From Somniosus microcephalus (lineage: Eukaryota), in the NCBI GenBank assembly GCA_052327205.1, contig CM126204.1:124062001-124126000 (forward strand): DNA of 64,000 nucleotides. Reading direction: 5' to 3'. The notes beneath the pieces were generated by a model. The model had not been told where the DNA came from and searched no databases. It saw nothing but the letters and a program-made list of their open reading frames with translations. Within the stretch, counting starts at the first letter, position 1. The number at the start of each line of letters is the position of its first letter. Made by a program: the position numbers and the translations under genes. Positions 1 to 62,655 of the stretch are shown in pieces.

Positions 1-310
1 AAGAAACTTTAATTAATACTTTGCTTATCAATCTTGTTTTCCTGAAGGATTTTCAGTTTAAAAAAAAATCAGAATAATTCGCCATTTAAAGTAGTCCTTA
101 ATGCAGATGCTGAATACAGAAACTTGTTTAAAGTTTAACAGAGAAGAGACACCCATAGACTGAATGTGCAGGAAAAGCTTCCCATAATGCAGTGTGTAAA
201 CCAGAGCTAACAAACGTCCTGCTGCGTTGAAAACCCCAAAAAGACAAAGGCACAATGAAATAGAGAGCTTACCACCGGCAGCTTTCAAAACGGCAAACTA
301 GGCAAACTAT

Positions 311-458
311 NNNNNNNNNNNNNNNNNNNNNNNNNNNNNNNNNNNNNNNNNNNNNNNNNNNNNNNNNNNNNNNNNNNNNNNNNNNNNNNNNNNNNNNNNN
401 NNNNNNNNNNNNNNNNNNNNNNNNNNNNNNNNNNNNNNNNNNNNNNNNNNNNNNNNNN
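311..458. other. Assembly gap (148 N)
   Basis: Run of N characters. Confidence 0.99.
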
Positions 459-3400
459 AGACCTGGTGCTTTTCAGTTGACTTGCTCATTGAATATTCTG
501 AACTAAAAAGGCTGCAACAGGGGGTTAGCTATGAACTTTTTAACTGGGTAAAATTTATACAAAAGTAAATTAGTGTGACAGCGAAAATATGAGAAAAATT
601 TCTGATTAATTTCCACTTCATAATATCAATGACACCTTTGGTTCCACTTATAGTTCTCCTACAAGGGAAGCTGATAAAGAGTGAATGAAGCTTGTGTTCT
701 TCACAGTGAATGTTTAGTGGTTTTTTAATAGCAATGTACTATATAAAGGCACCAGGAAGTACTCTGCATTAGCAATTGAGATCAGTAGTTAATAGGATGA
801 TGTCTTTTAGCTTTTGTCACAAGATTATTAGGAAGGATAGGTTTTCTGCCTCATCATTCCATGCTTTTAAGGGCCTGTTGAACATAAGTGCTAAAATACA
901 GGTTTCTCGGCACTGTTTTCTGTGTATGGTAAAAGCCTTTTAATGGAACACCTTTTACAGTTTTACCAGGTGATTTTGTCATTGCTCTCTCATCTGCTTC
1001 TCTTGCTGTATTAATTACTTGAAGGGTTCTGCTTTTCACAAGACCCTTGATGTTATCCCTATATACAAAGTAGAAAAGCAACCCTCAAGCAGGCCTTAGC
1101 ATTCCCCATTACTTGTCAGCATTTGTATAATTACATTAGACTTTACCAGTTTTATTCAATGAACATTCTCTATACGTTTGACTATTAGGTGATCAAAAGT
1201 TAATGCTCAGTAAACTGTAATGAGATTTAAATTATTATACTACAGTAAAATGGCAAAGCTATATAATTGTTGATTTTTTTGGGTAATGTTTTGATTATAC
1301 CGATAAAAGGCAGTAATTTTTTGCAACTGGTAACTGAAAAAAGTATTATAATTGTTGTAAATAAAGGAGAAATAAATAAAAATGTTGGATTTGAATGTTC
1401 TCTTGCAACTTAATGATTTAATTGCCCAACTCACCAACAGTAAAAGGGAAAACTACATATTGTAATTTGATTGGCACAACCATTTCTTTTGTTTTGCTTT
1501 CAATTTTACTTTTATTAGTTTTCAGTACAATTCACTGAAAGATAATAGACAAATATATCAAAGAGATTTCTGTTGGTACCATGGCAACAATAGTGTTGTA
1601 GTACCAAGTTGGACAGTATTACATATCGGAGAAAGACAAGTTGCGCAGCTGCATTAAAAGTACTGAGGTCAGAATAATTTTAGGTTTTGTCCAGATTATC
1701 TTTGAGTGTTTGAATAAATAGAAGCATGCAAAAGGGACCATCTGATTCTGTATTCCAGTAATCATTCCTGTTCAGTCATGGGGGGGTGTTTTCCAAGGTA
1801 AGCAAATTGTTAATATTCTTACATATACACTGAGCTTTCCTGTTGTTGACTGAAACATAATTGATAGCAAAGGGTTCTCTTTCCATTTTTCTTGTGATAA
1901 ATCTCCAGGTGAAAAAGAGCGACAGAAAGAGATTTACAGCACTTGACAACATGTGAAGCGAAATTAAATTAGCACTGCCTTTTAAATCTCCCATAGCCAA
2001 GATTTATTTGTTCTAGCTGATGTTATTAGTTCAATCATGTTATCCCTTTATATGCAAAGAAAATGGTGTTTGCTGAGGGGAATTACATACCACTGTAATA
2101 TAGATACAGTACTGTAAAATAAAAATGTGGCTGGCTGTACTTATTTTTCTGTAGCAACATAATTCTCTGTGATAATACACAGTTTGAAGGGCTTAAGAGT
2201 CTTGGAAGTTGCCTGGATTTTTTTCCACACATTGGCATATCTAGCCAGGGAAAGTTAAACAAGCAAAAATGTGTTATGCTCGTTTTTTTGTTTTTTTTAA
2301 ACGCCAACAGTACTAGTTTTAAACAACAAAAGCAGTGTGCTTTCATATCTAATCTTGAGATTAGGTATTGTGACAGAAGCTAAACTGCCTTTTTATGGTG
2401 CCAGAATACAACCTTTTTTCTCCCTAACAAGACTGGTCTACCACCATAGCCCACTCAACGTAATTAAATCAATCCTTTGTACTTGCCATTTTCTCCTCTA
2501 GTGACAGTGCTAGATCTGATTATATGCTTCATGCATATTCAAAGTGTGGTGCTGACAGCTCTTTAATGAGCTCTTACTTAATCAGTAGGAACAATGTCCA
2601 TCTTGTTCTTTTTTTCCCTTAGACATTAGAGGTAGAAACAATCAAGCAAAAATGAAACATAAGGCATTCATCTGCAAAATATTGTTCTTTTAAAAGTATG
2701 TAAGTCTGCTAAGTTACATGCTGCTCCATAAAATTCTGATCAACAAATTGGATTAATGCTATTGGATTAAATAGAAAATGGTTAGAGATGAAATGAGGAG
2801 CCCTTGTTTTGATCAGACATTAATAATTTTTGTAATTTGATAAATCTGTCAAGGTCTTCAATTGGAGTTATTAATAACAGGATTAATTTATCCCTGGTGT
2901 TAGTTACTTTCTGTAAGCCTTTTATTTTGAAACAAAGACTTAAATGAGTATATCAATTTCTAAACTGAGAAATAATTAGTTCTTTTTTAAAAATCTTGCA
3001 TGATTGTTTTGATAAATTTCATTTTGATACATCTTTGCATGGACAACTTTCCATCAATACTACATATCTATTTATAAGGTGCATTAAAAAGAACAAAATA
3101 CATTTCAAAAAATGTCATCTTATGGATTGAGAGCTGTTACTATTTATGCACATGTGTTATTTTGTTAATCAAACAGGACTTTGGAACCATAAACCTGCAG
3201 TATTCGCAATCACAAGTCTTTCCTCCTCCACCACCATTCTTTTATCTTCGATATTTCTCCTTTTGTTACTGCCCAGGGATTTGTGCCCATTGTAACCATC
3301 ACATAACTGGTGTTGGTTTGACTTGCCTACATATGACTACAGTTACTGCTATGTCGATGTGACATTTAAAAAAAAAACTGTAATCTTTTATTCATGTCAA

Positions 3401-4646
3401 GGAAAAACATGTACATTTTGCATCAGATGGGATATAAAACTCATTGCTTTCAAAATGAAATTGCGCTGTTGAGAAGAGTACTTTGAGACAATTATATAAT
3501 TGTCTGTTGAACTTTGTTTTAATTCTGTATCTCTGTCTTAAGTTTTAGCTGCTGGCTTCTTAGTGCATTAGTTCAACAAAGTAATGAGTTTGTACAAAAT
3601 GCTGCTGATTTGGAAAATAACTTTTTCACTGTCAACTATTTGTTATAGTTGTTTTGATGGGTATACTTAGACTGAAATTTAAAACAGAAACAGAAAAAAA
3701 ATAAAGTTTAATGTAATTTCTTTCTTGGAAAAAGGATTGTTTTTCTGGAATTTATAGCCAGCTTTGTTTTGAAGAATGTATTTGTTATGGTCAAAATAGA
3801 CTAAATGGTTAAAATAGACTAAAAGGTTGTGATGAACAAATGTAATATTTGCAAAGTATGACCCCCCCCCACCCAGCAAAACAAATTGGTAGGATTACTA
3901 TTAATGTTGTATAGTTTAATCTAATTTGTTTCTTTCTGTCTGTGGCAATCATATGCATGGTCTAATTTGTAAATTTGTGTAGTTTAAAATGAGCTGCTTT
4001 ATTGACAGGTATTGACATCTGCATCATTACTCCCATGGTTTACTTCAAAAGTAAATTATCTGCAGTTTTTTATAGCTAACGGAATGTTCAGCTAATACAT
4101 AGACGATATTTGGAGCAGGGTGCCTCAATGAAAGTGTTCATTAGCTAATGGGCACTGAAGTAAAATACTCTCTCAAGTGAAAACATTTATTCAGCATTTG
4201 AAAAGTAAATCAATTTAAAATTGATTATTTTCTGTTGTCTTTTTGCTGCATAGCTTTATTTTCTTAGCATAAACCATTTGGAAGTTATTGTGAAGGAGAG
4301 AGAAGTAGTTGCCTTTTCACTGCAGTGTTGCAACCAAATTGTTACAGCTCCTCTATTCAATAGTTGTGAATATAATGAGGAGATAGTCATGTAAAATAGG
4401 AAATGCAGTTATAAGTACATTTTGATTTCTGAATTCCAATGTAGCCTTCACACTTTGACCTTTTAAAAACCAACTGTAGAAAAAAAACTTGCATTGTTAT
4501 AGCAGAACTCTATATTCTATTTTTAAAATAGCAAATTTAGAAATTTCTTTAGTTTGTGCCAGTGGAGATGGTCTTACTCATCACCTTAATAGTCTTATTT
4601 TCATTTTTTTAAATTTTATCTCTTCTATTTTTTTTTAATAGCGGTA

Positions 4647-5264
4647 GGGCAACTAGCTAGTGCAGTGGTTTAAAAGATTGACCTTTCACCAGTGAGATCA
4701 TGAGTTTGAACCCAGCACAGAATGATTGGATGGAAATTTCTTCTCTTTGCTGGCTTTAATGGTCCTATGTTAAATGTCTTTTGGCAGTCTCTAGTGGGCA
4801 GAGGCCAATAGGACAAAATTACTCACAGTTCAACACAAATTGGCAGTCTCAAGATGTATTTACACTACAAGCTTAGATTTGGTGCAAATCGGTTTCTACC
4901 TCTCACTGATGGTAAACCTGTGTAGTGTAAGTGGAGAGTTACAGCCTGAACTAATTGGAAACAAAGCAAAGCGAGATCTCCCTCTTCCAGGGAGTCTCGT
5001 ACTGCTTCGCTCCAGTGTTAGGTCAGGTACAGGCAAAACTGCTTTGCACCAATGCTGCAGTTATAGTGTAAATGTTCCCTATTCAGCTATAAGGATTGTT
5101 GGTGTGAGAAATAGAAATTGTGGGGGGTGGGGCGGAAGCTTTGCCTTGTACTTCGTCTAAACTTCAATGCTAAAACTGAGTACTTAAAATGGAAAATTAT
5201 TCCATTCTACAGGGCTGATATTCTTCAATTTGATGAGAATAAATGGTGAAATAAAAAAGAAAAA
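4647..5264 (+). mobile_element. tRNA-derived SINE resembling LF-SINE, degraded, apparently near full length
   Basis: A-box-like TAGTGCAGTGG (4658) and B-box-like GTTTGAACCC (4704). Colinear blocks CCTTTCACC, TGGCT..CCTATGTTAAATG, CTAGTGGGCAG, ACAAAA..TCACA..AATTGGCAGTCTCA, GGAAGCTTTG and CAGGGCTG match my recollection of the LF-SINE consensus. A-rich 3' end. Confidence 0.6.
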
Positions 5265-5804
5265 GTAGCCTCTTTATTAGCAGTACAACTCGCCTGGTAG
5301 TGATGCCATCAGCGGCCATTTTACTTGTGGGCTGGAAAAATGAGATTTTATGATGCAGGAGTCATAGCAAATTTGTTTAATCCTGCAGGAGTAGTAAGAA
5401 AGTGTTATCTTATCTCAGAAATACATCTGAAGAGGTTCGAAAATTCTATTTTATACCAGACTAGCATCTACATGGATTAGCAAAACATAATTCAAAGAGC
5501 AGGAAAGGTTGTCACTAAATCATCTGAGTTACAGAAGGATTGTAAAATTTACAGTGACATCAGTGGGAAACTTTACTGATTCTGAGATACGATTAATCAT
5601 GGCTTCCAGATGTACACCAGTATCTTGCACAGGCAAGGATTAAAATCAACAGAAAAGAGGAATCTTAATTGCTTTCTCTGTACTGATTTTGGATTTTCCC
5701 CCTGCTCTGCGGTCAACTACACTGAGTCAAGATGAGCTCCCATTTGATTAGCTTCCTTTTGCCCATTATGTCTCTGCGTTTTGAAATACTTGGATAATGC
5801 TCCA

Positions 5805-6143
5805 GGGCAGCACGGTGGCATAGTGGTTAGCACTGTTGCCTCACAGCGCCAGGGACCCGGGTTCGAATCCGGCCTTGGGCGACTGTCTGTGTGGAGTTTG
5901 CACATTCTCCCCGTGTTTGCGTGGGTTTCCTCCGGGTGCTCCGGTTTCCTCCCACAGTCCAAAGATGTGCGGGTTAGGTTGATTGGCTATGATAAATTGA
6001 CCCTTAGTGTTAGGGGGATTAAATGGGGATATGTGTTGGTGTAGGGGTTACGGGGATTGGGTGGGATATGTGTCGGTGCAGGCTCGATGGGCCGAAATGG
6101 GCTCTATCTGCACTGTGGGGTTTCTGTGATCTGTGATTTCTGT
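5805..6143 (+). mobile_element. HE1-type V-SINE (elasmobranch tRNA-derived SINE)
   Basis: tRNA head GGCAGCACGGTGGCATAGTGG..GGGTTCGAATCC; V-domain GGGTTTCCTCCGGGTGCTCCGGTTTCCTCCCACAGTCCAAAGA; CR1-like tail GGCTCGATGGGCCGAAATGG with short terminal repeats. Confidence 0.88.
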
Positions 6144-6715
6144 GCGACAAACTGCACTCGTTTTGGAGAGAACACCAGTCGGGGTGGGAGCAAGAACAAG
6201 AAAAGTGAAAGCATCTAGTAAAATGTTATAGTTTGGGGATTTTTATTCATAATTAGAAACAAAGTTCAAATACCAGCTGTCGGTCTGGGCTGGACTGCTG
6301 TATAGAACAGTTGTAGCAAAAAGTAAACCGATAGATCCAGCTGCACAGAAGTGCAAATTTCTTTAAGCCAACCAAAGTGCCATGTCAGCCATGGAAATAT
6401 CCACAACCTAGAACTTCCTGCTTTGTTATCCAAAGGAACTTGGAGGAAAGTGTAGTGTGGCTGGCAACAGATGGATATAAGGGGATGACGATAAGGTGAA
6501 ATGTAAGTGAATGAAAAGGATAGTAGAGGTCAGTCAACTATTCATGCCTGTAAGCTTTACAATAATGTCCTGTAAATCGATAAATGCTGCACAATTATAG
6601 CTTCTGAAGTTATTTGTTGAAATATGATTGTTGCAAGATTTCATTTACAGCTAGCTGGCTGTTGGGTTGTTCCTGATTTTAAGCCTTTATATAATTCTGT
6701 TCCTCTGTTTTTCAG

Positions 6716-6815
6716 GAAACAATAAAGAGGAGGAAGAAGCAATGATGCAAGAGTGGTTTGTGTTGGTGAATAAGAAGAATGCCTTGATACGACGACAGAA
6801 CCAGCTTTCACTTTT
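6716..6815 (+). CDS. EHBP1: EHBP1 coding exon (bMERB domain): (G)[32 protein letters not shown](L)
   Basis: TTTTCAG acceptor, GTAAG donor, 100 bp; peptide nearly identical to the vertebrate EHBP1 C-terminus; phase joins the next exon (TT+G = Leu). Confidence 0.96.
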
Positions 6816-9449: not shown

Positions 9450-9523
9450 TTTGAATTATATGGAAAATGGTGGAAATACTCAGCAGGTCAGGCAGCATCT
9501 GTGGAGCGAGAAACAGAGTCAAT

Positions 9524-11388
9524 GGCCCTGATTTTCTGCCAGCCGTCGGGCGGCTTTCCAGGCAGCCGGGGGCTGAAAATCACCGAAAAAGTGGGTCGCT
9601 CCCCCCCCCACCCGCCTGATTCCCCACCCCATCCGACTTTCGGACCGCCGTTTCCCCGCGACCCGCTTCAGTCCCGCCCGCCGCTGGCGGGACTGGCCGT
9701 CGGAACACTAATAAGCAATTATTACCTTGTTTAAGTCGATTTTCAGGGGCCGTTGCGATTTTGGGGCTTTCCCCACATCAAACACGCCTGCGGGGAACCC
9801 CGCTGATGAAACCTGGCGTGAAGCTTGCCGGCTTGCTTGCTGCCAGCTGCAGGTCATTCGGAAAAGCTGCGATTTAAAGGGACAGCACTTGTATGTTGAA
9901 GGACCTTGTTGCTGAAGGCTTGGGGCTACTTCTTCAAGGCTTAGGCACAGCTGTGGAAGGTTGGAGCCTCACAAACTTCTCCAATGTGATCTCCTGAGAA
10001 GCCCCTCTCGCCACCCTCACTCAGCGCTTCCTCAGCGGAGGCATCTACGAGAAGCATGGGACGCCTTTTTTCCTTCCCTTGCCATTAGAGGATCTCCAGC
10101 AGCAGAGGCGGCAGCAGCAGAACCAGGAACAGCACGATGAGCACCAGGCTGCTGCTCACTCACCTGAAGCTGCACAGGCCAGAAGGGGCCAGCGCTTGGA
10201 AGTGGCTTGAGAACACCTTGCTGCGCTTTAGGGGGCCATGGGGACCCGTTTCTGCACTGGCAGTCCTACTCAGAAGGACTTCCATGAAAGTCTGGTTTCT
10301 CTGTTCAATAGATGGCCAACGCTCCTCAAGAGATGTCATTCTCTTATGAGCACTCACCATATTTTCCGTACCCTGGCGAGTTATCTCCTCCATGGAGGTT
10401 GCCAACCTTTCCATGGTGATGCGTTCATGCGCCAATGACTCCACAAAGGCTCTGCTTATGCTCGCTATGGACTCCTCCATTTGCTCCACACTCGCAGCGA
10501 CCCTGGAGACAAAACCTGCCAGAGACTCCTGCATCTGTGCATGGAGATCCATCACCTCTTCTCTTGCGGATGGACCCAGAGGGCAGAGGGCCGACATGCA
10601 GCGCAGCTGATCTGAGCTGGCAGAGTCCTGCGCCCTCCGACGAGGACTCTCCACTGCTGTCCCTGTCTCCAGAATCTGCTGAGGCTCACTTGTGAGCTGT
10701 GAAACACCAGGTGACAACACTACTCTATGTCCCAAATGTCCCCCCGAGGTGTGAGTGTCTGCGCTGGTGCTGGGTGCGCTTACTTCTGCTGACGCTGCGC
10801 CCTGAGTGGTTGGAGCTTCCTCTGAGGAGTCTGGCTGCACAGCCTCTTCCTCCTCCACAGTGAGGACGGGGGCTCTGGATGGTACTGTGGGGGAGTAAAG
10901 GAAGGAGTTAGAGATGTGATGCCAAGGTGACATGCACATTCGAGTTGACATCTGCTGACACCTGCATCCATGCAGCCTTGGTCTCAGTGGGAGGCCTCTT
11001 CCTGCCTGACCTAGGGAAGAGGACCTCCCTGTGGGCCCTAACCCCATCCAATAATGCCTGCAGTGAAGCTTTGTCGAATTTGAAGGCAGCTCGGGGTCTG
11101 GCACTGGCCACAGCTGCTGCAGGCTCCTCTGCCATCCTGTATGGTTCGTTTGGAAGCCTTCAGAGGATGCAGTGCTTGCTATGGACCTTGAAAGCACCAC
11201 GAATTATGACATCATACTGTGGGGCTTTCTGACTAGAAATGGACAATTAGCAAGGCTGCCCACATGCTGGGAATTAATTGGCCACTTGAGGGAAAATTGC
11301 GTGGAGCTGGCTGACATTTTTTTGTGTGTCAGAACCCCACATTCGGGGGAATCCGACCATTTCCCACACAAGCCACAAAATCGGGCCC
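9524..11388. mobile_element. Non-autonomous PIF/Harbinger DNA transposon (internally deleted) with Myb/SANT-like gene remnant
   Basis: TIRs GGCCCTGATTTT / AAAATCGGGCCC (10/12 match); 3-bp TSD AAT (9521-9523, 11389-11391); removing it restores the host repeat exactly; GC-rich interior. Confidence 0.85.
10160..11135 (-). pseudogene. Harbinger Myb/SANT-like DNA-binding protein remnant
   Basis: ORF 10908-11135 RAAFKFDKASLQALLDGVRAHREVLFP..TKAAWMQVSADVNS resembles the Myb_DNA-bind_5/MSANTD N-terminus; an acidic Ser/Thr-rich and coiled-coil-like segment follows in another frame (part of ORF 10160-11200). Confidence 0.7.
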
Positions 11389-11565
11389 AATGTTTCAGGT
11401 CGATGACCTTTCGTCAGAACATTCTGACAAAGGGTCATCAACCTGAAACACTGAATCTGTTTCTCTCTTCACAGATGCTGCCTGACCTGCTGAGTATTTC
11501 CACCATTTTCTGTTTTTATTTCGGATTTCCAGCACCTGCAGTATTTTGCTTTTGAATTATATGGA

Positions 11566-13990: not shown

Positions 13991-14738
13991 GAATATATGG
14001 GACCAGAAAAGAGCTTTGCACCTGGCTGGTTTCAGCATTTCGGAAGTATCATATCCCACAATATTTATCATATCTCTTTACCAGTTCTTTCTTTGGGTAC
14101 TTATCTAATTCTCTCTTGAATTTGATTATACACTCAGCCACACTGCCTCCTTGGCAGTCCATGCCATTCATTCATTACCTTCTGCATAAAGCAGTTAAAT
14201 CTTAACCATCTCTTCAGCATCCCTTTTCTACGTTTAAGGATATGCCCTCTTGTTGTCAAATAGTAACTATGTTAAAAGTTTATTTTTCAGGATGTGGGAT
14301 GCATATATTGCCCAACCCTTGTTTCCCTGAGAAGGTGATAATGGACCTTCTCCTTGAACCAGTGTAGCCCTTGTGGTTATGATTCTCCCACAGCGATGTT
14401 GGGAATTCCAGGATATTGATCCAGTGATGTATTTCCAATTCAAGATGATGGTGTGTGACTTGGAGGCATTGCTGTTCTTGTCCTTCTCAGTGGTAGAGAT
14501 TGAAAGGGAGGGAAATGCTGTTCAAGTAACCTTGATGAGATAGCTTCCAAAGATGACTCCTGGGCTGGCAGCCCCTTTCTGAGCTGCTCTTCTCTTCAAC
14601 TGTATCCATGGTCATCCATTGCCATCTTTTGCCCTTTCTTCCCCCAATCGCCTTTCTTCAATTGCTGATAGTGAAGGCATTTCAGCCCAAACTACAAGTT
14701 CAAAGCTACCCCTGCAGAGTCCACTGCCCATCCCCTGG

Positions 14739-14960
14739 CGTGCGGGTTAGGTTGATTGGCCATGACAAAAATTGGCCCTTAGTGTTAGGGGGGGGGTCAA
14801 ATACGTGGGGTTACGGGGATAGGGCTTGTGTGGGATGGCTGTCGGTGTAGGGACCGGGTGCTAGGGTTTGGATGATCAGCCATGATCTCGTTGAATGGCG
14901 GAGCAGGCTCGAAGGGCCGAATGGCCTACTCCTGCTCCTATCTTCTATGTTTCTATGTCT
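14739..14960 (+). mobile_element. 5'-truncated HE1-type SINE body fused to a CR1 3' tail
   Basis: GTGCGGGTTAGGTTGATTGGC..CCCTTAGTGTTAGGGGG shared with the copy at 5967-6017; then GATCAGCCATGATCTC..GGCCTACTCCTGCTCCTATCTTCTATGTTTC, the same tail as the CR1 at 13663. Confidence 0.75.
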
Positions 14961-25702: not shown

Positions 25703-25776
25703 GGAAAAAGAACACGATCTTGAGAGACGCTTTGAGCTGCTAAATAGAGAATTACGGGCTATGCTTGCAATAGAAG
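25703..25776 (+). CDS. EHBP1: EHBP1 coding exon: EKEHDLERRFELLNRELRAMLAIE
   Basis: CCTAG acceptor, G|GTAAGT donor, 74 bp, phases compatible on both sides. Confidence 0.96.
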
Positions 25777-39973: not shown

Positions 39974-40088
39974 ACTGGCAGAAAACAGAAGCACAGAAGC
40001 GACGTGAACAGCTCTTGCTCGATGAACTAGTTATTCTAGTTAACAAACGGGATGCACTTGTCCGAGATTTGGATGCCCAGGAAAAACA
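39974..40088 (+). CDS. EHBP1: EHBP1 coding exon: (D)WQKTEAQKRREQLLLDELVILVNKRDALVRDLDAQEK(Q)
   Basis: TTTTCAG acceptor, GTAAGT donor, 115 bp, in phase. Confidence 0.97.
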
Positions 40089-40190
40089 GTAAGTATTCCA
40101 CTGGGAAAGGAAACTCTTCCATCTCCATACTGGCTTAAAACTTTTCTCATTGTTTAAGTATACTGACCGGCTGTGTACCGATATATACAA

Positions 40191-40329
40191 TCATATCAAA
40201 TCTTGTAGTTTCTGAATTTTGTATAGTCATATCAAATCTTGTAGTTTCTGAATTTTGTATAGTCATATCAAATCTTGTAGTTTCTGAATTTTGTATAGTC
40301 ATATCAAATCTTGTAGTTTCTGAATTTTG
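40191..40329. repeat. Perfect minisatellite, 36-bp unit x ~3.9, in the last EHBP1 intron
   Basis: TCATATCAAATCTTGTAGTTTCTGAATTTTGTATAG at 40191, 40227, 40263 and 40299 (partial); no spacers. Confidence 0.97.
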
Positions 40330-40440
40330 AAATATAGTTTGATGGTGTTGATTATTAGATTCTTAATGTATAACAACGATCCAACCATCTCCATGGAATT
40401 AGTGTGTCGATTTGCTGATGCTATCTGTTTCTGTTTACAG

Positions 40441-40531
40441 GGCAGAAGAAGAAGATGAACACTTGGAACGAACTCTCGAACAAAGCAAAGGCAAAATTGT
40501 CAAGAAAGAAGATAAATGTGTACTTCAGTGA
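40441..40531 (+). CDS. EHBP1: EHBP1 terminal coding exon: AEEEDEHLERTLEQSKGKIVKKEDKCVLQ*
   Basis: TTTACAG acceptor; ends in the CaaX prenylation motif CVLQ and TGA at 40529-40531. Confidence 0.97.
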
Positions 40532-49538: not shown

Positions 49539-49635
49539 ATGATGTCATACCTCAAACAGCCTCCCTATGGCATGAACGGCCTGAGCTTGACCGCACCTGG
49601 CATGGATTTGCTGCACCCGTCAGTCGGGTACCCAG
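49539..49635 (+). CDS. OTX1: OTX1 first coding exon: [32 protein letters not shown]
   Basis: Canonical Otx N-terminus, 97 coding bp, CAG|GTAAAG donor; likely exon acceptor TTTTTTTTAG at 49431. Confidence 0.97.
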
Positions 49636-49941
49636 GTAAAGGCAGCCACGCGCACAGACCACTCCAATATTTAAATGTTTAATATCAAGTTGCAATCTTA
49701 ACGATGCAGAACATTTCGTCAAATATTGTAAACTTGGAGGCTTTTTATTTAGAATTGTAAAGTTTGGATTCAATAGCAACCTTGTAACTTACACAGTAAT
49801 CTTGGTGCATAACTTTATAATGCGGTTTTGGTGGGGTTATATTCTCAGTATACGGGGAATGGGGACTAATTACCGGGGTATTTACCTTTTTTATAACGAA
49901 AGCAAATAGTTGTGGAAGATTGAACTCGTCAATCTTTCTAA

Positions 49942-50148
<207 letters not shown>

Positions 50149-51962
50149 TGAAGTAGCCAATAATGTAATTCTAAATGTCTGATTTGTGGTAGCGACACTT
50201 AAACCTTCTCAGCCAGGAGAATGCAAGAAATGGCCAAAGATTGAATCTATAATCGCCACAAGGAAGCGCAGGGCCAGCTTTAAATCGTCTGCTACGATTT
50301 TGCAGTGAGATTTTATGCTTGCGGTATCTAAAAGATGGTTCAAATGTGCAGAAAAGTAAAGTTTTGCTATCGCTCTTGGCTCTAACCTGCCAAGTCCTGA
50401 GCGGCCCCTAGTGGAACCGCCTCGGGGTCAACCGACTCAGTGCCGTCGCATCAGGCGCTTGTCGGGGTTTCAGGGTTTGGGGCGAGTATTTTCCTGTAAT
50501 GTCTCGGGCATCAAGCGTTTTGTTTTTCAATATTGCAAATTGGGGGAAATATGAAAGATCGCAAACAGTTGTAACTATGTATTTCAAGTTACATTCAAAC
50601 ACCAAACGACACTATGCTTAACGTCTCAAACCGGCATAACATTCCGCGTTCTGGAAGTGGATCTTTCCGATTGAGACGGTTGCTTGTGAAGCATTTTCAG
50701 ACCATATTTGGTTAGAGACAGGTTAAGATTTTGCGTGCCAGCGATTGGCTACGGCATGTTTGCAAAACAAACCGACATGCAGGTGTATTTCATAGTTTAT
50801 ACTTAAAAGAAATCTCCGCACCTATGTTGAGAATATTTTGAAAACTTTGGCTGCATAAATTATCTTCCAATATATTCGCCAAAATCAATTTAAAAGATGA
50901 CCCTATCCAACACGAAGCCCCACATTTCTGCAATCTTAGCTGCAGATATCTCGGTCACTTCTAAGCCAACATCAACAAACCAATGTAATTGTTGCTACTA
51001 ATACTTGCGCCAGTCAGTGGTTTTGGGAGACCCCGCAAAGTAGGATTTTGAAATGTGGAATCGAACTCCGACTCAGGAAAAAGTAACTGATGCAAAATGA
51101 TTTAAAATGAATCGAGGTGAGCAACACAAATGGTTTGACTAGAACTCAACCAGTATTGACACTGGTCCTCTGACCATTACAGCAGTGGCGTGAGGAATCC
51201 CACACCTTAACGCTGAAGGTTATAAATCGGCTTTAGTCGAAATTATCCCATTTAGTGCATTAGAATGTGTTTACAGGAAGTACTGGCATTTTGTATGATG
51301 GGACGGGCTGTAGTGACCAATGAGGTTGAAAATGGGACTGAGTTTGTATAAACTTTTTAATTAATCTGGCACCAAGATGTAACTTTTATTGGGGGAAATG
51401 TGATGCTGGAAGCCAAGATCTGTAAGCAACGCGTCTCGCGTGTTTATGCGATTATGGACAGATTATAAAGGGATGGCGAAATTTGTGAATGGCGATTGGA
51501 CTGCACTCTCCTTACAATCTTTTAAGGAGATTAAAAACCCATGTGTTCGGGTTTTTAACCTTCACTATGATTCGAATTGACAATCCCAGAAAACCAGCTA
51601 AAGCAACAAAGACTTGGTGGAAAATTAAGGCCGATAAAGCTTTTTCTGTACGAGTAGTGGGGAGAAACATGAGCGAGTTTGAATAGTTTAAATGTTGCCT
51701 TTTCCAGCCCTCTCGCCTAATGCAAGTACATTTTTATCGGAGTTTTGCACTTTATTTAGGAGAGGGTTAAATAAAATTGGACAAAAGGCTTTCATCCAGT
51801 GAACCCGCAACGGGATAAAACTTGGAGCAGATTAAAGGGGAATTTGACAAGTTTATGCAAGAAAACTTCGCGCCGACTCCTAACTGGGAAAAGTCGTGCG
51901 GGCGCCATTCCCTGATGTAGCAATAATGCAGTTTTGTCCCAATTCCCTCCTGGTCTGACTAG

Positions 51963-52685
51963 GTGTGGTTTAAAAATCGTCGCGCCAAATGCCGCCAGCA
52001 GCAGCAGAACGGAGGCAGCGCCAAAGCCCGGCCGGCCAAGAAGAAATCGTCGCCGACCCGGGAGAGCAGTGGCTCGGAGAGTAGCGGTCAGTTCACCCCG
52101 CCCGCCGTCTCCAGCTCTTCCAGTTCATCCAGCAGCGGCCCCAGCACCAACGCCAACAGCGGCCCGGCCTCCTCCGTCCTCAGCACCCCCGCGTCCATCT
52201 GGAGCCCGGCGTCTATCTCCCCGGGGGCCGCAGTCGGGGAGCCTCTGGCCGCCAGCGCTTCTTGCATGCAGCGCTGCTCATCTTCATCCTCTTCCAGCGC
52301 CTATCCCATGGCATACGGTCAAAGCAGCGGCTATACCCAGGGCTACCCGCCCTCCTCCTCCTACTTCGGCGGCGTGGATTGCAGCTCGTACCTGGCACCC
52401 ATGCATTCACATCACCCACACCACCCCCACCACCAGCTGTCTGCCCACGGCGCCGCCCTCAGCCCCATGAGCACTTCGTCCATGTCTGGGCATCACATCA
52501 GTCAGAGCGCCGCTCACCACCATCACCACCACCATCACCAGGGCTACACGGGGCCAGGACTGACATTCAACTCGCCCGACTGCTTGGATTACAAAGACCA
52601 GACCTCCTGGAAACTCAACTTCAACACAACGGACTGTTTGGATTACAAGGACCAGACCCCGTCCTGGAAGTTTCAAGTCTTATGA
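51963..52685 (+). CDS. OTX1: OTX1 last coding exon ([15 protein letters not shown]..His runs..two DCLDYKDQ tails..WKFQVL*)
   Basis: CTAG acceptor, K50 recognition helix, His-rich segments typical of Otx1, synteny with EHBP1; spliced CDS 972 bp = 323 aa. Confidence 0.98.
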
Positions 52686-57172: not shown

Positions 57173-57433
57173 GTTCACTATTTTCTTCCTCTTCCACACC
57201 CCCCCCCCCCCAATAGTTTATAATTATTAGCAGTGACAATATTTACTAAAATTAAAATATCCCTCTTCCTTTTTTGAGTTTTTTTTGACTTACCTAAACA
57301 TGAATACACATTAAATCAAATGTAAATTCAACCCTCTTTTTAAAATACTTTTAACTGTTGTATAACCATATAATTTCTGTTTTGACCCTCGCTTCAAGCT
57401 ATCTTTAAGAGGGATGATGGGATAATCCAGTGT

Positions 57434-57620
57434 ACAGCGATCAGACATGGCCATATCAGTTCTTGGTTGACCTGCATAATGGATGCCTGAGTAATGGGAA
57501 AAGGCATCTATCCCTCAATTAAATAAAAACTGAATGTTGGGGATAGATGCCTTTTCCCATTACTCAGGCATCCATTATGCAGGTCGGCCAAGAACTGATA
57601 TGGCCATGTCTGATCGCTGT
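57434..57620. repeat. Near-perfect inverted repeat (81-bp arms, 25-nt spacer)
   Basis: 57434-57514 is the reverse complement of 57540-57620 at 79/81 positions. Confidence 0.97.
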
Positions 57621-59451
57621 CCAAGTTTCAAACCTTACGAAAAATCCAATTTTTTTCTATATGGTATCTGGAGGGGGAGGGGAGATGAGAAGAGTGCTGA
57701 AGGACTTGAAAGTGAATTGTATGTCTCCTTGAATATGTTCATTCAAGGTGGTTGTGGTGCAAATATGTGCTGTGCTCTGGGACTGTATTCTTCACTCTTG
57801 TTCCTCTACAGAGAATTTCATGTTACAGCCAGCCCATGAAACACTTGCCCAGAGGAAGGGAGGGGAAAAACCCAGCCATCGCTGCTCTTGTACCGCACCT
57901 ACTTAAGGGTAGCACAGCAAAAAAAAAAAACCTAGGAACTGTGCTTTTTATTATTTTGGTTCCATCAGCAGCAACACCCAATACTATATACCATTCCTGA
58001 GCTGAATGGACAGCAGTGGACCTGCTCCCAGGTCTATTGCTAGTGGTGGCAGAATGGAGTGTTAAATTGACCTGGACTAATTCAGTTTACCCATCCTCCA
58101 CTTACCTGGTTAGATGAAAAACTAGCCCTGTGGGGAATTGCTGCCATGGACTCAGTCTTACTACTTATTGTACAACATAATGCAATAATATGCTTCATCA
58201 GTAGGTTCCCCAATTTAAAATACAAATGTTCTGTTTTCAGTTTGGGGGAAAAAGGTCCACAGCATATTAATGTAAACACCTCTCGGTGGCCTTTCTTTGC
58301 ATGCTTGCAATAGGTGTTGTTACTATAAACAAACACCAGGTAAGTTGATCTCCTAGAAGAGCATTCCTTTGTGTTTAGTAGAACACTCTTAAATTGTCAA
58401 TGCATGAGTTCTTGCTGTTCCATGAACCTTAATTGGATGCTAGCCACAAAGTGGAAAACAAATGAAATAGTCACTAGCCAAAGATACATATTCATCAGTT
58501 GGAACTTGAATATTGCATTTAGCAGGCAATCTATAAATTTTGAAGCAATATTTTACATAGTACTGAAATATGCCATGTAAAGAATTTAATTTTTTTTCAA
58601 AATGTAAATACTAGACTGGCAGAGAATCAAAGCCTAAATACCTTATTCAGAGGCAGAAATCTGACGCATCTGACAAAATAATTGCCTTCATTTGTTTGGA
58701 CTAATTGTTTTTCTCCCTGCCTGCTCTATGCTCCAACAGAACTCTTGTCATTTTCTATATAAGTTTATACACTTTTATTAATCTGTAATACCCTGCAGGG
58801 CACCAAAAGGAGTGAGGCATTATACTGCAATAAGTGGTTGCTAATGGTTTTTAATTGATTTTAACTGATTTATGTCAATGAAAAAACTTGACATCCATTT
58901 GTAGTAGAATGAAATGTCAAGTGTTCAAAAATAATTGCCCTTGAATATTGTTTTACATTTAAATTGCTTGGTAATTTTTCCCCTTCCTTTCTCCACCCCC
59001 CCCCCCCCCCCCCAACTAAAGTAATACCAATAGACCTTTTAATGTTTTGTTCTTGTACCGCAAGTTATTTCTGCAGTGGTTATGTACTGTAGTTATAGTT
59101 TGAAGCTGTAATTAAGATATTTTCATGTGCTGCCTGTTTGCATTTAATGATCCAGAACCTATTCCTTTTTTTCTTATGCCTCAATCTCTTGTCCCTCTTC
59201 TAGTCACTAATTGCCATTGTTCTCCTGACTTGTCTCCCTCTCCCACCACAGCTTTTTTCTTTCCCTTTGAGTTTTTGATTATCCACATTCTGTTGTCCTG
59301 TTTTTGTAGCTTTTTTCCCTCTTCCAGATGGAATTCTCCAGTATGAACATTGTCCAACTCTTTTACCTCCTCCCCACCTCCAAATACGTGCAACAGATTG
59401 TTTCATGGATCCCTAAGCACCATAGGCTACCTGCATTGTGCAGCAATTCAC

Positions 59452-61984: not shown

Positions 61985-62440
61985 TATCAACAACTTGCAT
62001 TTATATAGCCCCTTTAACAGAATAAAATGTCCCAAGACAATTCACCGAAGTGCATCAGATTAAAAATCAATGCATATTGATGGAGCTTTAGGGAGGGTGA
62101 CCAAAGATTGATCAGCGGTGAGGCAAAAGGATTTAGGGAGTGAATGCCAGAGTAATGGGTCGGCTGGCATTGGGGGTGATGGATGCACAAGGGGCCAGAG
62201 TTGTAGGAACGCCATGTTCTCTGGGGGTGATGGGGCTGGAAAAGGTTGGAGTAGTGAGGTTATGAAGGGATTTAAACCTGAGGATGAGAATTTTAAATTT
62301 GAGGCATTGGCGGACCAAGTGCCAATGAAGATGGGTGAGCGGCACTTGGTGTGGGATAGGATTCAGGCAGCAGAGTTTTGGATGAGGTAGAGGATGGGAG
62401 ACTGGCCAGGAGAACATTGTAACAATTGAGATTGGTGATG
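61985..62440 (-). mobile_element. L2 LINE 3' fragment
   Basis: Minus-strand LHWHLVRQCLKFKILIL.FKSLH motif; reverse-complement tail CAACAACTTGCATTTATATAGC. Confidence 0.82.
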
Positions 62441-62447
62441 AAATCAG

Positions 62448-62655
62448 CTGTTGGAAGTACACAACAGGTCAGGCAGCATCTGTAAAGAGGAGACCGGTTA
62501 TGATGTTTTGGATGTATACTCGTCAATCTTCTGTACTGACAACGCATAATTAGAATTTCAAAATCTGTCTTTTCTCTAGATGCTGCCTAACCCACTGTGT
62601 AGTTCCAACATTGCTTTTATTTCAGATTTCCAGCATATGCAAATTTTCCTTTTAT
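62448..62655. mobile_element. Older palindromic Penelope-like terminal-repeat remnant
   Basis: TGTTGGAAGTACACAACAGGTCAGGCAGCATCT ... AGATGCTGCCTAACCCACTGTGTAGTTCCAACA followed by TTTTATTTCAGATTTCCAGCA, the same architecture as 9465-11550. Confidence 0.65.

Follow-up and report, generated by a model that had tools for sequence, protein, structure and literature searches.

The window analysed here, a 64-kb stretch of DNA, contains the 3′ end of EHBP1 and the whole coding region of Otx1, both on the + strand. The four EHBP1 exons were placed with named shark EHBP1 proteins and their coordinates are approximate; the Otx1 coding exons span 49539-52685:

6716-6815, + strand: EHBP1 exon, the first in the window, covering about residues 1119-1152 (tblastn with a named shark EHBP1, splice sites read)
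25704-25775, + strand: EHBP1 exon
39975-40089, + strand: EHBP1 exon
40439-40528, + strand: EHBP1 exon
49539-49637, + strand: Otx1 coding exon 1
~49951-50106, + strand: Otx1 coding exon 2, holding a homeodomain
~51963-52685, + strand: Otx1 coding exon 3, holding the TF_Otx domain

The first-pass annotation had read the DNA as that of a shark, and the Otx1 gene bears this out: among the 120 homologues listed for exon 3, the best five are all OTX1 sequences of elasmobranchs, topped by that of the sawshark Pristiophorus japonicus with 98% identity, which identifies the host as a squalomorph shark. The subject of this study is a SINE-like element located in sense orientation 1.45 kb before the EHBP1 exon at 6716-6815, with the Otx1 start codon (49539) lying 44.3 kb downstream. 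As the part of shark EHBP1 upstream of residue 1114 could not be mapped in positions 1-6700 by tblastn, the element is intronic in EHBP1. Its proposed placement in the regulatory block of Otx1 thus stands, given that Otx-Ehbp1 is a known ancient regulatory block according to PMC3514665.

The window contains a 148-base assembly gap (311-458) and, in the last EHBP1 intron, 3.9 copies of a 36-bp tandem repeat unit with 100% matches (40191-40329). Positions 5805-6140 (+) are occupied by a young tRNA-SINE, presumably V-SINE/HE1-like, that is rich in CpG and retains both its A and its B box intact; it has a partial second copy at 14720-14932 (E 7e-13). By eye, its tail is of the CR1 type (compare the supplement of PMC7245038). 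At 9463-11510, inverted repeats of 62 nt (93.5%) surround open frames, one of which matches Myb_DNA-bind_5 weakly (E 0.002, short of the curated cut-off); this is possibly a Harbinger remnant, and arms related to its repeats form a palindrome near 62435-62650. A near-perfect hairpin of 190 bp (57431-57623; self-inverse E 6e-45), located 5 kb past the Otx1 stop, is probably a younger MITE.

Anatomy of the SINE-like element

The whole element covers 618 bp (4647-5264) with its insert, described below, and ~385 bp without it. The SINE portion comprises the following features:

4647-4716, + strand: tRNA-like SINE head (box scan and standard tRNA numbering)
4717-4851, + strand: 5′ SINE body, with blocks at 4751-4851; putatively the most LF-SINE-like portion
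5083-5248, + strand: 3′ SINE body, with blocks at 5134 and 5210
5249-5264, + strand: A-rich tail (from reading the sequence)
4682, 4704, 4751, 4764, 4791, 4813, 4823, 4838, 5134 and 5210: starts of the ten named sequence blocks (motif search of 4601-5300)

The first-pass annotation had reported at least six ordered blocks that would follow the LF-SINE consensus, and all ten sequences named there are indeed present, each occurring once in 4601-5300 and in the order given. It had also described a pol III head. Both boxes were recovered, in the proper order and with their starts 45 nt apart: an A-box-like site at 4658-4668 with one mismatch and a B-box-like site at 4703-4713 with two mismatches and without the conserved C. 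Under standard tRNA numbering, the stretch 4683-4689 takes an anticodon-loop-like position, and the TTC found there as anticodon suggests that the head may be of the Glu type. The box pair is near chance: the window holds two A/B pairs versus 0.8 per 64 kb in a Markov control, so that the pair on its own does not exceed chance. A figure of zero by chance obtained for one pattern is circular, the pattern having been derived from the site itself. Nor was the head recognized as a tRNA. ARAGORN found no tRNA genes in the whole window, and Rfam gave no matches in the window at the gathering score and only chance-level small RNAs, with no tRNA match to the head, at E ≤ 5-10. However, these null results weigh little, because Rfam, at the same setting, also failed to detect the head at 5816-5870, which belongs to the young SINE and is intact.

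There is no CpG in 4645-4722, nor anywhere in the 207 bases of the head and 5′ body; such CpG loss and the missing C of the B box would be expected for an old methylated copy. At the head, the GC content steps from ~0.30 to 0.40-0.44. At the other end, positions 5195-5270 form no stable fold (z −0.01), and the 3′ end is unlike the CR1 tails in the supplement of PMC7245038, as compared by eye. The region 5080-5270 does not match any LINE remnants within the window, and no clear target-site duplication flanking the whole SINE was found at the 4647-5264 ends. BLAST and nhmmer searches of the 64-kb window for further copies of the element or of any of its four parts returned self and self-inverse matches only. 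Two AATAAA hexamers occur at 5238-5255 in the sense of EHBP1 transcription and are possible cryptic polyadenylation signals.

Several other readings of the element were rejected. An open frame of 121 codons (4795-5157) does not qualify as a gene: it belongs to no Pfam family, yielded none of 11 candidates at E ≤ 10 and is absent from the shark EHBP1 proteins; its one match among 1.84 billion representatives (E 1e-5, 29% identity) is of uncertain origin and was not used as evidence. A two-block pattern of the body matched once in GTDB, in a 170-kb bacterial contig, where 1.6 matches are expected by chance, and nothing similar extended beyond the seed. Searches of plasmids and phages with the element by blastn gave no match, and a scan for bacterial promoters and terminators, irrelevant here, was empty.

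The palindromic insert

The first-pass annotation had described the element as following LF-SINE with a longer middle. This reading is reversed, because the middle is a separate palindromic insert, leaving a SINE body that is shorter than that of LFSINE_Vert. When the element was compared with the window by nhmmer, the one extra match was antisense to the query and covered the middle of the element itself (4856-5075; E 1e-5, and 3.5e-6 in a second search). The insert and its flanks are as follows:

4852-5079, no strand assigned: imperfect palindrome, MITE-like, 228 bp (nhmmer, folding and arm alignment)
4848-4851, + strand: left flank C-TCA, possibly one half of a duplicated C|TNA|G target
5083-5086, + strand: right flank TCA-G, possibly the other half, with three extra bases (5080-5082) between it and the right arm

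The insert folds as a single long hairpin, both as DNA and as RNA (z −6.7, equalled by none of 200 shuffles in either case). Its outer arms form terminal inverted repeats of 38 nt each (4858-4895 and 5036-5073) that are 76% complementary; over the full arms, 66 of 88 aligned columns pair, a score reached by none of 500 shuffles. Pairing ends sharply at 4852 and 5079; in the DNA beyond these limits, no more than 4 of 20 and 4 of 30 positions pair. Five of the 1669 tiles of the window score as high as the insert, all due to two other hairpins. The centre lies near 4985-4989, with the left arm being ~43 nt longer. The left end of the insert has a 10-nt exact inverted copy at 4921-4930 inside this longer arm, which points to a subterminal repeat or else to a minor rearrangement within the insert.

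We are highly confident that the insert is a MITE, that is, a non-autonomous DNA transposon placed inside the SINE; the crocodilian Chompy MITEs are comparable short palindromic elements. With moderate confidence, it can be assigned to the PHIS type (NuwaII/Harbinger). According to PMC4482050, NuwaII elements target C|TNA|G and carry terminal inverted repeats of 13-46 bp that usually start with GG. Similar to these PIF-Harbinger MITEs of the PHIS superfamily, the insert is a short palindrome with C-TCA/TCA-G flanks, and its right end reads GG inward, following the NuwaII rule, whereas its left end starts with AG, three bases are added at the right junction, and the 12 NuwaII host species listed in PMC4482050 include no shark. 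The fit to C|TNA|G is thus imperfect, and we estimate that a 3-mer would recur within a few bases about 1 in 10 times by chance. Neither the Myb-bearing element at 9463-11510 nor the hairpins at 57.4 and 62.4 kb match the insert, and they were rejected as its autonomous partner or siblings; the first of these hairpins (57431-57623) is probably unrelated to it.

The Jukes-Cantor distance between the arms is 0.28-0.30, which corresponds to ~0.15 substitutions per site for each arm. At the rate of 1.0-1.1e-3 given in PMC5499810, and assuming that the arms were initially perfect complements, the insert would be roughly 130-150 My old, both the assumption and the rate being uncertain; the slower rate quoted in the same source yields implausible ages. 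The SINE copy must be older than the insert and would thus exceed this estimate. Once transcribed within the EHBP1 pre-mRNA, the insert would fold into a stem of double-stranded RNA and, speculatively, might be a substrate for editing.

Probable affinity to LF-SINE and competing explanations

LF-SINE is the textbook example of an ancient retrotransposon that was turned into enhancers and exons, including an exon of PCBP2. The family is said to have been described by Bejerano et al. in 2006, and a copy near ISL1 reportedly was exapted as an enhancer. In agreement with the first-pass annotation, the LF-SINE consensus presumably resembles ~4720-4850 and, more loosely, 5125-5220; the blocks at 4682 and 4704 are not diagnostic of the family because both belong to the tRNA head. 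The SINE is probably related to LF-SINE. According to PMC5063351, LFSINE_Vert is a SINE2/tRNA element of 481 bp labelled as His-type. The shark copy is similar to it in having a head that derives from a tRNA and carries both pol III boxes, A and B (near chance alone), a long body, an A-rich 3′ end and, presumably, the order of the blocks, but differs in its chondrichthyan host, its MITE-split body, its head, which may be of the Glu rather than the His type, and its length. With the insert, the element measures 618 bp and, without it, ~385 bp, that is, ~95 bp short of ~481 bp, for which reason we do not file the copy as a member of LF-SINE; the shortfall would be accounted for if this copy had suffered a deletion or if sharks had a shorter subfamily. 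A further difference is the lack of a match at E ≤ 5 or E ≤ 10 to uc_338, the one curated LF-SINE-derived model expected in Rfam, a weak negative given that release 15 may lack the model and that the 3′ part of the copy is disrupted and diverged.

LF-SINE is called specific to lobe-finned fishes in PMC2315648, and the available portions of PMC5381603, PMC4255032, PMC5753468, PMC9004415, PMC11444175, PMC10257727 and bioRxiv 150482 mention it for coelacanth and tetrapods only; the name is absent from PMC3531059. No report of a chondrichthyan LF-SINE was found in the literature searched, outside of which lay Repbase, Dfam, Repbase Reports and most subscription papers, and we judge it about as likely as not that an annotation of a shark relative already exists in some resource.

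The element could instead belong to a different or shark-specific tRNA-SINE family that has no more in common with LF-SINE than an unspecific tRNA head or an exchanged 5′ module. We consider this rather unlikely, although two of the named blocks are features of the tRNA head, uc_338 gives no match, the length gap is ~95 bp, and module exchange is common among SINE families (PMC7245038, PMC5499810). The presumed likeness is not confined to the head; it runs through ~130 nt of the body and resumes past the insert. Among the known families, SacSINE1, SacSINE1-CM and LmeSINE1, which are Deu-SINEs, resemble the element in being an old tRNA-SINE lineage. Their head, body and tail are common to shark, chimaera and coelacanth and were dated to ~434-488 Ma, as stated in PMC5499810, providing a direct precedent for a SINE lineage common to sharks and coelacanth. 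However, the SacSINE1 lineage carries a Deu domain, whereas none was seen in the element by eye, in an unscored comparison with five Deu rows of the PMC7245038 supplement; the domains of UCON3 and of the Meta-domain SINEs were likewise absent in an unscored comparison by eye with the rows of that supplement. From the sequence, the lack of Deu, UCON3 and Meta domains and of a CR1-type tail argues against an assignment to those shark SINE families.

A second alternative is exaptation: like the LF-SINE copy near ISL1, the SINE, the hairpin or the two together would act on Otx1 as an enhancer located within EHBP1. The first-pass annotation had placed it between enhancer-like blocks, which the motif counts do not sustain: five developmental motif patterns gave 0, 2 and 1 matches in the three parts, versus 0-10 per 350-bp neighbouring tile. 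One of three tested ehbp1 intronic peaks in zebrafish gave otx1b-like expression (PMC3514665), Lhx2 sites in mouse brain show an enrichment of LFSINE_Vert copies (PMC10257727), and the shark copy is old and nearly full length. Nevertheless, with no motif excess, a body bearing an insertion and a probable deletion, and the young SINE (5805-6140) only 540 bp away, indicating that the spot tolerates insertions, exaptation appears very unlikely. Most likely, the element is a neutral fossil without sign of function. The AT-rich (GC ~0.32), repeat-poor intron stretch at 460-4600 contains clusters of homeodomain-type sites near 2210-2900, and a search for Otx1 enhancers would be better directed there than at the SINE.

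It also is very unlikely, in our opinion, that a composite shark SINE family carries the palindrome as a constant component, with no later insertion in this copy: the imperfect target duplication would fit such a family, but palindromy has sharp limits at 4852 and 5079, and a DNA-transposon pattern fits both the ends and the flanks. Finally, that there is no SINE at all, only a lone MITE in ordinary intron DNA with boxes and blocks arising by chance, is extremely improbable, for although the chance rate of A/B pairs (0.8 per 64 kb), the head unrecognized by ARAGORN and Rfam and the single copy in the window would agree with it, the boxes, the anticodon-like loop and the A-rich tail are correctly ordered and spaced, and the GC content steps up at the head.

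Proposed origin of the copy and its possible meaning for LF-SINE

The Otx1 regulatory block of a shark thus contains a genuine SINE-like copy of old age in which a MITE is nested, and this copy behaves as the fossil of a tRNA-SINE. We favour, with somewhat better than even confidence, the explanation that an old SINE with a tRNA head, probably belonging to the LF-SINE lineage, left this copy, which is dead, was later split by a MITE and now is neutral. This explanation is supported by the head-body-tail order, the sharp-ended palindrome, the NuwaII-like flanks, the intronic site and the shark-coelacanth SINE precedent; against it stand the ~95-bp shortfall, the absence of a second copy in 64 kb, the near-chance A/B pair, the imperfect target duplication, and the head that may be Glu-type as against His-type.

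Judging from the anatomy and from general SINE biology, pol III would have transcribed a source copy with the help of its A and B boxes, and the resulting SINE RNA would have been reverse-transcribed from its 3′ end by a partner LINE into the EHBP1 intron, in sense orientation. Subsequently, a transposase, presumably of the PHIS family (Harbinger/NuwaII type), would have chosen a C-TCA-G site within the body of the SINE and set there the observed non-autonomous element of 228 bp, after which SINE and insert both would have decayed. With no CpG left and a B box without the conserved C, pol III transcription and further copying are unlikely. That the copy is still recognizable is attributable to the slow evolution of shark genomes and not to any demonstrated function.

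It is possible, albeit somewhat doubtful, that sharks carry an uncatalogued LF-SINE lineage; that this copy is, beyond that, a conserved Otx1 enhancer is highly improbable. The surprise would be only moderate, because SacSINE1/LmeSINE1 and UCON3 already span sharks and sarcopterygians and the repeat databases may hold an entry. UCON3, an ancient conserved repeat of tetrapods, was later seen as a SINE in chimaera (UCON3_CM) via a Repbase Report (PMC7245038), a case which shows that range extensions are often filed in Repbase only.

The nested MITE serves as a marker of relative age and accounts for the odd length of the element. If sharks do carry the lineage, LF-SINE would predate the split between sharks and bony fishes rather than being a lobe-finned invention, and would have been lost or eroded in teleosts. 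A shark relative would shift the origin of LF-SINE to the jawed-vertebrate ancestor and turn its name into a misnomer, a dating that holds only if homology and vertical descent are established. Such a relative would also be an outgroup that reveals which binding sites preceded exaptation, and old shark copies, with the present one being older than a MITE of maybe >100 My, could lead back to the ancestral element and to the LINE that mobilised it.
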